A stretch of 17,543 bases of DNA, taken from a virus. This document shows, piece by piece, positions 10,355 to 16,662 of this stretch. The DNA lies in the UHGV virus genome UHGV-0153102, one strand, 5' to 3'. The notes below the pieces were generated by a model. That model saw only the letters and a list, made by a program, of their open reading frames with translations, was not told the origin of the DNA and searched no databases. Numbering within the stretch: position 1 is the stretch's first letter; every line of letters begins with the position of its first letter. The position numbers and the translations under genes are program-made.

Positions 10355-10663
10355 ATGAGTATTGAATTAAGATCGTCTTATGAATATCGCAAAATCCTTA
10401 TCGCCGGAGGCATGAAACCGGAAGATGCAGAGAAATTCGTTTCTTTTATGGATAAAGAATGTGACAAGCGGGATATGCCAGAAATTATTATGGATGACAT
10501 GATTCTGGATTCAGCCGTGGCGTTAAGTCCGTTATGGATTGTGCATACTCTTGCGGAAATAGCTAAAAGAAGTGACAAGCAGGCGGCTGTCGCCGCCCTG
10601 CGATTACTGGCTGAATTAAGTTGTTCAGTCAATCCCAATACGTTCTTTGACGAACCTGGTTAA
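10355..10663 (+). CDS. hypothetical protein
   Basis: 102-aa ORF with AGGTGA RBS; its 3' end overlaps the minus-strand moron by 39 nt. Confidence 0.55.
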   Translation: MSIELRSSYEYRKILIAGGMKPEDAEKFVSFMDKECDKRDMPEIIMDDMILDSAVALSPLWIVHTLAEIAKRSDKQAAVAALRLLAELSCSVNPNTFFDEPG

Positions 10664-11035
10664 CATTGATTTGGTAACTTCTTTAATTAGATCAAATGGT
10701 GCGTCTGTAAACTCCTTTTTGATTCTTTCAAGGATTGGTTTTTTTCTCAGGGCGTTAGCTAAATCATGCCCCTGCTGGGTAAGCATAATGGGCGTGTTTC
10801 TGAAACCAACGCCCAGAGAATGGAAAAAGAAACCAATATATTTGGGTGTTTCTGACTGCATATCACCATTAACAATTGAGCCATTATCAGCGAGAAGCAT
10901 AAGATGAAAAACTTTTTTATCCTTTTCCTCTCCTTCTGCCTCAGCCATGCCCAGATCCTGTAGTGTAAGGAAAGGTGTTTCAGCATCCTGAAAAGTTGTG
11001 AGAATACTTAATACTTCATCGTAATCTATTTTCAT
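10625..11035 (-). CDS. opposite-strand AT-rich moron encoding a 136-aa protein of unknown function
   Basis: Only sizeable minus-strand ORF inside the rightward early operon. The surrounding ~400 bp is visibly more AT-rich than the flanking phage DNA. Own RBS (AAAGG) upstream of the ATG at 11033-11035. Confidence 0.65.
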   Translation of the reverse strand: MKIDYDEVLSILTTFQDAETPFLTLQDLGMAEAEGEEKDKKVFHLMLLADNGSIVNGDMQSETPKYIGFFFHSLGVGFRNTPIMLTQQGHDLANALRKKPILERIKKEFTDAPFDLIKEVTKSMLTRFVKERIGID

Positions 11036-14157: not shown

Positions 14158-14739
14158 ATGGATAAGCCAACGCGTGGCCGTGTACGCAAGGTGGATTTGC
14201 TCCCCAACAGCATCCGTAAGCCGCTGCTGGAAATGCTGCGTGAAAAACGTCTGACGCAGGTCCAGATCCGCGAGGAAATCAACCGTCTGATCCGTGAAGC
14301 AGGTCTGCCGGAAGAGCAGCAGCTCTCACCGGCGGCCATCAGCCGGGAAGCCTCCCGTAATGAGCTGATTGCCCGTAATCTGCGTGATTTACGCGAGCAG
14401 ACAAAAGCCATGATGGCCGAACTGGGGGATAAGCCGACCGGTGAAACCACGGCACTGATTCTGGAGATGTCCCGTGCCCTGATGTACCGCCGTCTGCGTG
14501 CCGCCACCGAATCCCTGAACAGCGACAGCGATGTGGATATGCGCCTTATTAAGGACATCCTCCTGTCGGCACAGCGTGCAGAAAGTGCCGCCGAGCGCAG
14601 CATTAAGCGTGAAAAAGAAATCCGGGCCGCATTTGCTGAAGAGATGGCGAATGCGGTCACCGATGAGTTGCGCGGCGTGGATGGCATGAGCGAGCAGATC
14701 GAATTCCGTATCAGGCAGATGCTGCTGGGTAAGGCGTAG
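14158..14739 (+). CDS. terminase small subunit (Mu gp27-like)
   Basis: 193 aa; N-terminus ...VRKVDLLPNSIRKPLLEMLREKRLTQVQIREEINRLIREAGL resembles Mu gp27 as recalled; sits upstream of the large terminase. Confidence 0.7.
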   Translation: MDKPTRGRVRKVDLLPNSIRKPLLEMLREKRLTQVQIREEINRLIREAGLPEEQQLSPAAISREASRNELIARNLRDLREQTKAMMAELGDKPTGETTALILEMSRALMYRRLRAATESLNSDSDVDMRLIKDILLSAQRAESAAERSIKREKEIRAAFAEEMANAVTDELRGVDGMSEQIEFRIRQMLLGKA

Positions 14740-14749
14740 GAGGTGAATC

Positions 14750-14998
14750 ATGGCAACAGATAACCGCTCACTGATGAGCAGTGCCCATCAGAAAGCATTC
14801 AGTCTTGCAACACAGTTACCTCCTGAAACCATAAAGGTATGTCGTGAGTTGACTGAACTCAGCATTGCCGGGGAAATATCCCTGGAACAACTGCATTCGC
14901 TGCTGGCAGAGGCTGCCACTGATGAGTTGAGCGGCGTGGACGTGATGACTGAAGAGCTTGAGTCCCGAATCAAAAGCATTCTGACAGGTAAAGCATGA
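14750..14998 (+). CDS. small protein whose C-terminal ~28 residues duplicate the terminase small-subunit C-terminus
   Basis: 82-aa ORF; its stop overlaps the terminase-large ATG (ATGA). Its C-terminus AATDELSGVDVMTEELESRIKSILTGKA parallels the TerS C-terminus AVTDELRGVDGMSEQIEFRIRQMLLGKA; the similarity is also visible in the DNA. Confidence 0.55.
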   Translation: MATDNRSLMSSAHQKAFSLATQLPPETIKVCRELTELSIAGEISLEQLHSLLAEAATDELSGVDVMTEELESRIKSILTGKA

Positions 14999-16662
14999 TG
15001 AACAAAGCCAGAGAAACGTCGCCTTCACTGATGCAAATGACGCCTCCCCGCAAAATTGATCTGTCAGGTGAAAAAGCCCTGCTGGGCGTGGATGTGCCGG
15101 ACAGCCTTGATTTGCCCGGTGATATGCCGGTGTTTCTGGATTATCAGGCCCGCTGGTTTGCAGATGAAAGTCAGGTCTGCATCGCGGAGAAATCCCGCCG
15201 CACCGGGCTTACCTGGGCGGAAGCCGGGCGTAACGTCATTACTGCTGCAAAACCGAAGCGTCGTGGTGGCCGCAATGTGTTTTATGTGGGATCAAAGCAG
15301 GAGATGGCGCTGGAATATATTTCTGCCTGCGCGCTGTTCTCCCGTGCCTTTAACCAGCTGGCAGATGCTGATGTGTATGAGCAGACATTCTGGGATCGGG
15401 ATAAAAAAGAAGAAATTTTGACCTACATGATCCGCTTTCCGAACAGTGGATTCAAAATTCAGGCATTGTCTTCCCGTCCGTCAAACCTGCGCGGCCTTCA
15501 GGGGGATGTGGTGATTGATGAAGCCGCGTTCCACGAGTCACTGGATGAGCTTCTCAAGGCGGCAATGGCGCTCACTATGTGGGGCGCGCGCGTGCGTATT
15601 ATCTCCACGCATAACGGCGTCGATAATCTGTTTAATCAGTACATTCAGGAAGCCCGCGAGGGGCGCAAGGATTACAGCGTCCACCGCATAACCCTGGATG
15701 ATGCCATTGCGGACGGGCTGTACCGTCGTATCTGTTACGTCACCGATCAGGAATGGTCACCGGAAAGCGAGCAGAAATGGCGTGATGATCTCTACAAAAA
15801 CGCCCCGACCCGTGAGGATGCCGACGAGGAATACGGCTGTATCCCGAAAAAATCCGGCGGTGCCTATATCCCCCACGCGCTTATTGAAATGGCGATGATC
15901 CGCGACATCCCGATTCTGACGTTTGAAGCCCCGGACAACTTCATCAGCCGTGCCGCATGGCTGCGTGAATCGGAAGTTTTAACCTGGTGTGAAGAACATT
16001 TAAAACCGCTTTTAGAGAAATTAAATCCCCGTTCCCGCTTCAGCTTCGGGGAAGACTTTGCCCGCACCGGTGACCTGTCCTGCTTTGTGCTGCTGGAAAT
16101 CACCGAATCCCTGGCAAAGCGCGAGGTGTTTCGCGTGGAGCTGCGCAACCTGCCGTATGCCCAGCAGGAACAGGTGATGATGTACATCCTGACCCGCGTT
16201 CCGGCGCTGGTCGGTGCGGCGTTCGACGCCACCGGTAACGGCGGCTATCTGGCAGAGGCCGCACTGCTGGCCTTTGGCCCGGATATCATCGACTGCGTGA
16301 TGTTGTCGCCGAAGTGGTACGGCGAGTGGATGCCAAAACTGAAAGCCGAGTTTGAAGATCAGAATATCCTCGTCGCCCGCCATCAGACCACGCTTGATGA
16401 TTTGCGCCATGTGAAGGTAGTGAATGGTATCCCGCAAATCGACAAGGGGCGCACGAAGGACCAGAACGCAACGGCTGCGAACGCCCGCCGCCATGGTGAT
16501 TTTGCCGTGGCGCTCTGTATGGCAAACCGGGCGTCATACATGGAGGGCTTCATCCTGGATGAATCAGCCTGTCAGGCGCTACCGGAGCGGTCGCGGGCAA
16601 TGGAGGGCGGTTATCGTGATGACGATGAGGCATATCATGAATTTGATCGGGGGGGCTGGTAG
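14995..16662 (+). CDS. terminase large subunit (Mu gp28-like)
   Basis: 555-aa ORF in the position of Mu gp28; contains a Walker B-like VVIDEAAFHE motif. Confidence 0.8.
   Translation: MMNKARETSPSLMQMTPPRKIDLSGEKALLGVDVPDSLDLPGDMPVFLDYQARWFADESQVCIAEKSRRTGLTWAEAGRNVITAAKPKRRGGRNVFYVGSKQEMALEYISACALFSRAFNQLADADVYEQTFWDRDKKEEILTYMIRFPNSGFKIQALSSRPSNLRGLQGDVVIDEAAFHESLDELLKAAMALTMWGARVRIISTHNGVDNLFNQYIQEAREGRKDYSVHRITLDDAIADGLYRRICYVTDQEWSPESEQKWRDDLYKNAPTREDADEEYGCIPKKSGGAYIPHALIEMAMIRDIPILTFEAPDNFISRAAWLRESEVLTWCEEHLKPLLEKLNPRSRFSFGEDFARTGDLSCFVLLEITESLAKREVFRVELRNLPYAQQEQVMMYILTRVPALVGAAFDATGNGGYLAEAALLAFGPDIIDCVMLSPKWYGEWMPKLKAEFEDQNILVARHQTTLDDLRHVKVVNGIPQIDKGRTKDQNATAANARRHGDFAVALCMANRASYMEGFILDESACQALPERSRAMEGGYRDDDEAYHEFDRGGW

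Follow-up and report, generated by a model that had tools for sequence, protein, structure and literature searches.

An extra open reading frame between terS and terL of an Escherichia coli Mu-like prophage is probably a chimera made by recombination at the terminase junction

The window analysed here, that is, the whole 17,543-nucleotide (nt) stretch of virus genome UHGV-0153102, is part of an Escherichia coli Mu-like prophage and is 99.9% identical to the prophage in strain TOE17, which adjoins cheR and a truncated response-regulator gene. Our subject is ORF82, an open reading frame (ORF) of 82 codons lying between the genes for the small and large terminase subunits, terS and terL, whose product ends in a segment homologous to the C-terminal tail of the small subunit, TerS. 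A preliminary description of this DNA had drawn attention to the arrangement. We confirm its descriptive points, namely that the phage is Mu-like with a TerS of the gp27 type, that an additional gene separates terS from terL, and that this gene has a tail homologous to that of TerS and a stop codon overlapping the terL start. The gene order is as follows: a TraR/DksA zinc-finger gene, a DUF2730 gene (Mu gp25-like) and a VpaChn25_0724-family gene in the gp26 position, then terS, ORF82, terL and the portal gene. In what follows, orfX is our name for the small terS-terL ORFs of enterobacterial Mu-like phages, and the K type is one of two tail types of the gp27 family described further below. The features of the locus are these:

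14158-14739, plus strand: terS, small terminase of the Mu gp27 family, 193 amino acids (aa), complete (PF11985, phrog_426).
14644-14739, plus strand: tail copy 1, the last 31 terS codons and the stop codon (..MANAVTDELRGVDGMSEQIEFRIRQMLLGKA, then stop), an authentic K-type TerS tail.
14738-14746, plus strand: Shine-Dalgarno sequence AGGAGGTGA of ORF82, overlapping the terS stop codon, as read from the sequence.
14750-14902, plus strand: ORF82 head, codons 1-51, the orfX accessory-gene part, a predicted three-helix bundle (AlphaFold2, AF2) with tail-less homologues in the same slot.
14903-14998, plus strand: tail copy 2, ORF82 codons 52-82 and the stop codon (LAEAATDELSGVDVMTEELESRIKSILTGKA, then stop), probably the 3' end of a displaced terS allele, with an L001-type terS tail as the nearest relative.
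14996-15000, plus strand: TGATG stop/start overlap of ORF82 and terL, reading (C/A)TGATG in all alleles.
14998-16662, plus strand: terL, large terminase of the Mu gp28 type, 554 aa (phrog_2; start at 14998 according to the Prokaryotic Genome Annotation Pipeline, PGAP).
14998-15042, plus strand: hypervariable first ~15-17 terL codons, within the exchanged junction cassette; conservation resumes at PPRKIDL.

In profile searches, residues 12-193 of TerS cover all of PF11985 (positions 1-173 of 173, E 4.9e-33), and the protein also matches phrog_426, terminase small subunit, at E 2.6e-54. TerL matches phrog_2, terminase large subunit (E 5.8e-43), and is 72% identical to Mu gp28. ORF82 is annotated in RefSeq and matches phrog_30922, a family of unknown function, over residues 2-82 on profile positions 2-82 of 82 (E 6.9e-52); against PF11985 it gives no match at E<0.1. 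Its Shine-Dalgarno sequence stands 3 nt (ATC) before the start codon, with the GGAGG core 6 nt upstream, and the spacer GAGGTGAAT(C/A) is shared by every ORF82 allele, by L088 and by the deletion remnants of L009 and L014, related loci to which we return below. With its 82 codons, the gene is present in 14 of the loci read, which represent 8 distinct alleles. In 6 of these 14 loci the start codon is GTG rather than ATG, and in some alleles (L084, P0005 and P0006) codons 1-17 are replaced, with MEKNIRALIISARHEAF.. standing in place of MATDNRSLMSSAHQKAF.., so that the head is itself mosaic. Around ORF82 we found no promoter or terminator signal above chance and no RNA elements, and consequently we place the gene inside the late operon.

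The two tails are plainly related. In BLASTP, TerS residues 163-193 align without a gap to ORF82 residues 52-82, with 18 of 31 residues identical (58%), 24 of 31 positive and an E value of 2e-10; the tail homology of about 28 codons reported earlier is thus real, in protein as well as in DNA, only that it extends over 31 codons. The two DNA copies (14647-14739 and 14906-14998) are offset by exactly 259 nt and are about 61-62/93, or 66%, identical in register, as compared with a mean of 25%, a standard deviation of 4.6% and a best value of 43% among 34,900 other 93-nt windows on both strands. Positions 51-82 of the phrog_30922 profile likewise match the tail of TerS (E 6e-8). What is more, the K-type tail motif, ..DELRGxDGMSExLExRIxxxLLGKA, is present in ORF82 52-82, which departs from it at the positions of TerS G176 (to Val) and L190 (to Thr); G176 is Gly in all 26 gp27 proteins aligned and L190 is nearly invariant. 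That said, the 160 nt upstream of each copy are 31% identical, which is the background level, and the homology is therefore confined to the tails.

One way of arriving at two such tails would be a tandem duplication within the locus, in which the final ~259 nt of the resident terS would have been copied and the proximal part of the copy would then have diverged into a new ORF. Such an event would fit the 259-nt period at which the tails stand in register, the fact that ORF82-less relatives are exactly 259 base pairs (bp) shorter, and the similarity between the 82 aa of ORF82 and the length of the last 85 TerS residues. Against this, not only is the sequence upstream of the tails at background, but an hhalign comparison of the orfX family with the 26 gp27 proteins aligns the tail alone (probability 3.7%), leaving the head unrelated to the gp27 body; the head has tail-less homologues in the same slot of other phages, and the tail of ORF82 resembles that of a foreign terS more than that of the resident gene. 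The upstream background identity, the head's own family and the foreign affinity of the tail largely refute a tandem duplication, and we consider it very improbable.

Could the extra gene simply be the 3' end of terS, split by a sequencing frameshift or a misassembly? The repeat itself may invite the question, as may a 1-nt deletion in the G run of ORF82 in P0010/L094, which lies on a short read-assembly contig and is uninformative. However, TerS is full length, with a C-terminus as in all relatives: it matches PF11985 end to end and has 193 aa, just as in the relatives that carry no such ORF. In addition, the architecture recurs, with allelic variation, in 25 complete E. coli genomes and in 8 IMG/VR contigs. 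These population data refute a split terS, which the preliminary description had raised as a possibility and to which we assign a practically negligible probability.

The distribution of ORF82 is narrow. It occurs in 25 of the 230 E. coli genomes with this prophage type (29 places) and is absent from ~90% of the sister prophages; in ~205 of the 230 genomes the locus has no ORF82 and terS passes through TGATG directly into terL. In Mu, D108 and SfMu no gene lies between terS and terL, the gap in Mu being 7 nt. Tailed ORF82-like proteins are confined to E. coli, both in a search of 5.8 billion proteins and in a full HMMER scan of 1.84 billion representatives. As for other small carriers of the tail, apart from P0041 and two long repetitive proteins that scan recovered nothing but the clusters of ORF82 itself, and a tail-profile search gave gp27 fragments and no other small carrier. 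Two candidates of 55-71 aa (P0062 and P0063) turned out to be a third type of TerS body, broken by Ns or by a frameshift, and were rejected.

The head of ORF82 belongs to a family of its own. Namely, it carries the orfX head motifs A-H-x-x-A-F, C-R and I-A-S/G-G over about 50 residues, and it has tail-less homologues at this position in L029 and L024 (65 aa; BLASTP E 4e-7 for L029), in L028 (87 aa) and, as an unannotated 58-aa ORF, in Yersinia phage Tongde (BLASTP E 7e-5). The family as a whole spans 56-87 aa, and a search with the head profile gave 39 members, including many Salmonella alleles of 65 aa, Yersinia and E. coli forms of 56-58 aa and P0041 with 67 aa. The Salmonella members scored at E 1e-17 to 1e-25, and the P0041/L088 head is 54-57% identical to that of ORF82. 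Among these 39 proteins, only the E. coli forms of 79-82 aa carry the TerS tail. The position is shared as well: in the window, L024, L028, L029, L002 and L088, orfX follows right after the terS stop codon, has its own Shine-Dalgarno sequence and lies upstream of terL. In the Tongde genome (vB_YpM_Tongde, MT591577; L002), the unannotated ORF at 2088-2264 (MKNNYRAQLISAHKKAF...) stands between terS and an annotated 64-aa ORF (phrog_21398), so that this phage has two small genes in the slot.

AF2, run on the family alignment, predicts helices at ORF82 residues 5-20, 25-39 and 45-60 (predicted local distance difference test, pLDDT, 78-89); beyond these come residues 60-65, a linker predicted with low confidence, and, in the tail, a short helix at 68-79. 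As for a function of the head, nothing significant was found in Pfam, NCBIfam or PADLOC, and there was no Foldseek match at E<0.001 in the PDB or BFVD. A resemblance of the tail-less orfX to phrog_220 (E ~3e-5) was not trusted, as it falls on an internal stretch of a composite profile of 1338 positions.

Where does the tail come from, if not from the neighbouring gene? Within a single terS clade (TerS at least 97% identical), we find four forms of the terS-terL junction:

Form A, L088: terS (tail ..IEFRIRQMLLGKA), spacer GAGGTGAATC, a tail-less 67-aa orfX, a 119-nt gap and terL starting MSKRTGEEK..
Form B, L009 and L014: form-A terS and spacer, with orfX reduced to ATGGCAACAGA, a 9-codon ORF overlapping the form-A terL start.
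Form C, the window: form-A terS, spacer and orfX start, with the ORF continuing into a TerS-type tail, and TGATG-terL starting MNKARETSP..
Form D, L001 and ~205 genomes: terS (tail ..LESRIKGILLGKA) joined via TGATG to terL starting MNNAEELSP..

Between L088 and the window, TerS is 99% identical in amino acids and the tail, the spacer and the start of the ORF are shared, the 5' end of terL being different; a tail identical to tail copy 1 is found in both L009 and L088. All four forms become alike again at CCNCGCAAAATTGAT, where terL encodes PPRKIDL, and the variable cassette is flanked by two conserved elements, the KREKEIRAAFA-tail region of terS and PPRKIDL of terL. More generally, the 5' end of terL is hypervariable in sequence and length in L001, L009, L024, L033 and L088, TerL being otherwise 96-99% identical. 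The 119-nt non-coding gap between orfX and terL (L088, 2705-2823) is without a counterpart in the window. In the orfX remnants of L009 (3093-3122) and L014 (2487-2516), what remains is the Shine-Dalgarno sequence and the first 11 nt, giving the nine codons MATDWFSYE and a stop just inside terL, which suggests that an upstream initiation site may have been retained to feed the translation of terL.

The tail of ORF82 is nearer to the L001-type (form D) terS tail, with 72/93 nt and 22/31 aa identical, than to that of the resident terS (about 61-62/93 and 18/31). The same is true of the 57 nt 3' of the tail, which match the 5' end of D-type terL at 36/57 positions and the flank of the resident terS at 19/57. 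In BLASTN, the segment 14900-15045 gives a match of 128 contiguous nt (76.6%, E 2e-17) across the gp27/terL junction of 206 ORF82-less E. coli genomes. In other words, the stretch that runs from the ORF82 tail through TGATG to about codon 17 of terL is colinear with the site where terS meets terL in relatives that lack ORF82. Because of this colinearity and of the greater nearness of the tail to L001 than to the resident terS, we regard ORF82 as a chimera born by recombination. Our preferred explanation, which we hold to be probable, is that it is a chimeric accessory gene made at the terS/terL boundary, a mosaic hot spot in Mu-like phages. Of the two interpretations offered earlier, a partner of the large terminase or a duplication remnant, the latter comes nearest, with the difference that the duplicated tail would be the 3' end of a different, L001-type terS allele, recombined onto an accessory gene that was already in place.

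As to the course of events, we infer an ancestor resembling L088 (form A), with terS, a tail-less orfX, a 119-nt gap and terL, which would have recombined with an L001-like (form D) genome. Codons 1-~51 of ORF82 would then derive from orfX, and the last 31 codons together with TGATG and the first ~17 terL codons would derive from the junction of another Mu-like phage, a relative of the L001 type. The right crossover would have been homologous, in conserved terL at PPRKIDL, and the left one an illegitimate in-frame join of the 3' part of orfX to the start of the donor terS tail. The donor junction predicted in this way is a terS ending ..LESRIKSILTGKA, directly joined to a terL starting MNKARETSP. 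We have also considered whether the L001 type could be a recent deletion derivative, produced by recombination between the two tails, and found this unsupported: along its whole length, the L001 tail is distinct from either copy (45/54 and 42/54 identical in the proximal part, 27/42 and 33/42 in the distal part), and the junctions are 77% identical.

The overlap between ORF82 and terL deserves a comment. It had been described as ATGA, and a stop/start overlap does exist, but ATGA is specific to the allele in the window. Since most alleles read CTGATG, and since the PGAP start agrees, the conserved overlap is TGATG, with terL starting at 14998. In about 60 of the 79 related IMG/VR loci, the stop codon of terS either overlaps the start of terL or lies directly beside it, and therefore coupling appears to be the norm here. 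ORF82 would be translated from its own strong Shine-Dalgarno sequence, and ribosomes ending at its UGA would restart on the overlapping AUG of terL; with these two elements, ORF82 would have taken over from terS the task of supplying terL with ribosomes from upstream. If so, the main constraint on the tail DNA is probably that the frame stays open as far as the terL junction.

How strongly is the protein itself constrained? Counting synonymous and non-synonymous changes among the 8 alleles, and expressing their relative rates as omega, we obtain the following:

terS: 44 synonymous, 1 non-synonymous, omega approximately 0.01.
terS tail: 12 synonymous, 0 non-synonymous, omega 0.
ORF82: 17 synonymous, 25 non-synonymous, omega approximately 0.6 (P 0.05-0.1 versus neutrality).
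ORF82 tail: 5 synonymous, 6 non-synonymous, omega 0.45-0.5.

Purifying selection on ORF82 is thus below the level of the terminase genes (omega ~0.6, versus 0.01 for terS and 0.08 for terL), and the difference between the two tails is significant in Fisher's test (P = 0.0046). One allele, P0006, even has a Leu to Pro change within the tail helix. The first 18 codons of terL (14998-15051) are similarly loose, with a ratio of non-synonymous to synonymous differences (pN/pS) of ~1.0, as against 0.08 elsewhere in terL. In the tail-less orfX of Salmonella, pN/pS is 0.41, versus 0.09 in terS and 0.07 in terL, which makes orfX a fast-evolving family in general. Because the tail of ORF82 evolves almost freely and is altered at positions that are invariant in real TerS tails, we rate ORF82 as a dispensable accessory product and not as a required component of the terminase. 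The protein would consist of a three-helix head, a flexible linker and a short helix copying the TerS tail, that is, of an orfX-type accessory factor with a decaying copy of a TerL-docking element; it may keep some affinity for TerL. Taken as a whole, ORF82 is probably a real but low-impact scar of recombination, neither a sequencing error nor a new packaging subunit.

It should still be noted that several points weigh against this assessment. In particular, the Salmonella value of 0.41 means that ORF82 may be a normal, fast-evolving and functional accessory protein, and its omega of ~0.6, derived from just 42 changes among 8 alleles, does not differ clearly from 1 or from ~0.4 (P 0.05-0.1). 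The complete alleles all have exactly 82 codons, in each of them the tail helix retains its hydrophobic face (L-E-x-R-I-x-x-I-L), and the products still end in GKA, which is compatible with a retained capacity to bind TerL. As for the direction of the event, among complete E. coli genomes we found no donor junction closer than 77%, and it is formally possible that the tailed form is the older one and that the tail-less and ORF-less forms would be derived from it. The intactness of the frame, on the other hand, is weak evidence, since only ~1.3 nonsense changes would be expected in ORF82 under neutrality, and since the need to read through to TGATG would explain it anyway.

What might the tail bind, should it bind anything? 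Tails of the gp27 family fall into two types, K (..DELRGxDGMSExLExRIxxxLLGKA) and I (..AEKIVKQAGLTAETAADIRRQILGIA), ending in LLGKA and ILGIA, respectively. In 29 of 29 loci the tail type equals the TerL type: K tails go with a TerL that has the N-terminal PRKIDL..GVD.. region, and I tails with a TerL without it. The type of the TerS body, in contrast, does not track TerL. Namely, in L042 and L048 an I-like body occurs together with a K tail and K TerL, L037 has a Mu-like body with an I tail and an I-type TerL N-terminus, and L092/L093 have the third TerS body type with a K tail and K TerL, the breakpoint of the tail swap being the conserved KREKEIRAAFA motif. In lambda and P22, the C-terminus of TerS binds the N-terminus of TerL: residues 140-162 of P22 gp3 bind TerL 1-58, and the C-terminus of lambda gpNu1 binds gpA (PMC9611059). 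The gp27 tail resembles these segments in being a short, flexible, helix-forming C-terminal element that is co-inherited with the TerL N-terminal region, and it is swapped together with terL independently of the body. It differs from them in that neither the gp27 tails nor that of ORF82 have any sequence similarity to theirs, and that the ORF82 tail is weakly constrained and sits on a non-terminase carrier. By analogy, then, the authentic gp27 TerS tail is most likely the TerL-docking element in this group of phages. That said, as the genes are adjacent, co-inheritance of tail and TerL could arise from linkage alone.

These considerations bear directly on the other earlier interpretation, according to which ORF82 could be a working partner of TerL. 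Its tail would dock on the TerL N-terminal region, so that ORF82 would either tether its head there as a third, regulatory component of the terminase or compete with TerS, for example by holding new TerL inactive or by interfering with co-resident Mu-like prophages. Quite a number of observations speak for such a role. The tail keeps the K-type motif DEL-G-D-M-E-LE-RI-IL-GKA, and the linkage of the tail type, but not of the TerS body, to the TerL type in 29 loci fits a TerL-docking element, as does the lambda and P22 precedent (PMC9611059). ORF82 is encoded beside terL behind a strong Shine-Dalgarno sequence, its length of 82 codons is intact in 8 alleles that differ by a synonymous divergence (pS) of ~0.10, its head is predicted to fold (pLDDT 78-89), and many hosts carry 2-4 such prophages. 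Other observations speak against a working partner: ~90% of sister prophages do without the gene, as do Mu, D108 and SfMu; its tail has 6 non-synonymous and 5 synonymous changes compared with 0 and 12 in the real one (P 0.005); and the tail carries the substitutions at G176 and L190 and, in P0006, the Leu to Pro change. Furthermore, the other orfX members are tail-less, and neither the 1.84 billion representative proteins nor the tail-profile search held another small carrier of the tail. Because the core motif and the hydrophobic face of the helix are retained and the translation signal is strong, we nevertheless keep this reading in consideration, as an unlikely one.

A more specific and somewhat less likely proposal is that ORF82 would be a natural mimic of the TerS tail: the grafted tail, on a monomeric protein coupled in cis to the synthesis of TerL, would dock on the TerL N-terminal domain (PPRKIDL...GVDV) and so cap TerL or compete with TerS. 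Such a mimic could serve as a packaging timer, as a chaperone or as a weapon against co-resident Mu-like prophages, and for the last of these options it is relevant that the TerS tail of the target prophages (L001 type) resembles the ORF82 tail more than the resident tail does. If true, a portable TerL-binding peptide would here be in the course of recruitment to a new protein.

Returning to the recombinational chimera that we favour, it has several counterparts among known systems. It is similar to mosaic junctions and insertions of the "moron" type in that a variable cassette lies between conserved flanks, with at least 4 alternative fillings within a single lineage, and in that other Mu-like phages have unrelated small ORFs at this position. 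However, ORF82 lacks a promoter or terminator of its own and consequently is not a classic moron, and in this case the crossover joined two genes in frame, with the effect that a functional peptide of the essential neighbour is now present twice. To phrog_30922 and the tail-less orfX ORFs it is tied by the full-length profile match, by the homology of the head and by genomic position, the difference being the TerS tail itself. Small proteins of satellites, namely the TerS variants and Ppi of Staphylococcus aureus pathogenicity islands and Rpp of phage-inducible chromosomal islands, act through the interfaces of terminase subunits. So does the small third terminase subunit of herpesviruses, pUL33 (PMC9611059). 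In contrast to all of these, ORF82 is encoded by the phage itself in its late operon and bears no similarity to them in sequence or fold.

A few further observations concern the surroundings. In more distant phages (TerS 33-38% identical, I-type tail), an unrelated ORF of 63-68 aa (phrog_1761/5120, of unknown function) occupies the terS-terL slot, its start overlapping the terS stop (L066, 3076-3267; L071, 2093-2299; L072 and L074, 3082-3288). At the edge of the prophage, the 132-aa "response regulator" that follows cheR (window ~1334-1732, from 2235-2633 of L004) directly abuts the prophage end, and it appears that the Mu-like prophage was inserted into cheB, truncating it. Finally, a DUF2513 gene on the minus strand (window ~10624-11034, from L004 11525-11935) runs opposite to the otherwise unidirectional early/middle region, which gives it the look of inserted cargo.

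Precedents exist for mosaic junctions, for small inserted ORFs and for TerL binding through a C-terminal tail, and phrog_30922 has been catalogued without a function. In the literature consulted, we found no description of a duplicated tail or of a tail/TerL module, and nothing relevant on Mu gp27 and gp28 or on genes between them. What is new here is the duplication of the interaction peptide of an essential neighbour onto a different protein, as well as the comparative map of an exchange module composed of the tail and the TerL N-terminus in Mu-type terminases. For this family, the broader message is that the last ~31 residues of gp27-type TerS form a separable module, which travels with the TerL N-terminus across at least 3 unrelated TerS bodies. 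For Mu-like phages, whose TerS-TerL interface has no solved structure, this provides a map that can be tested. An essential operon evidently tolerates insertions at this point, and ORF82, the tail-less orfX, the 9-codon remnant and the direct overlap would each keep ribosomes delivered to terL. In this sense, the locus is a useful natural experiment, with ORF82 itself probably a minor accessory; and if ORF82 does bind TerL, it would supply a competitor peptide already at hand, with which Mu-type packaging could be studied or inhibited.

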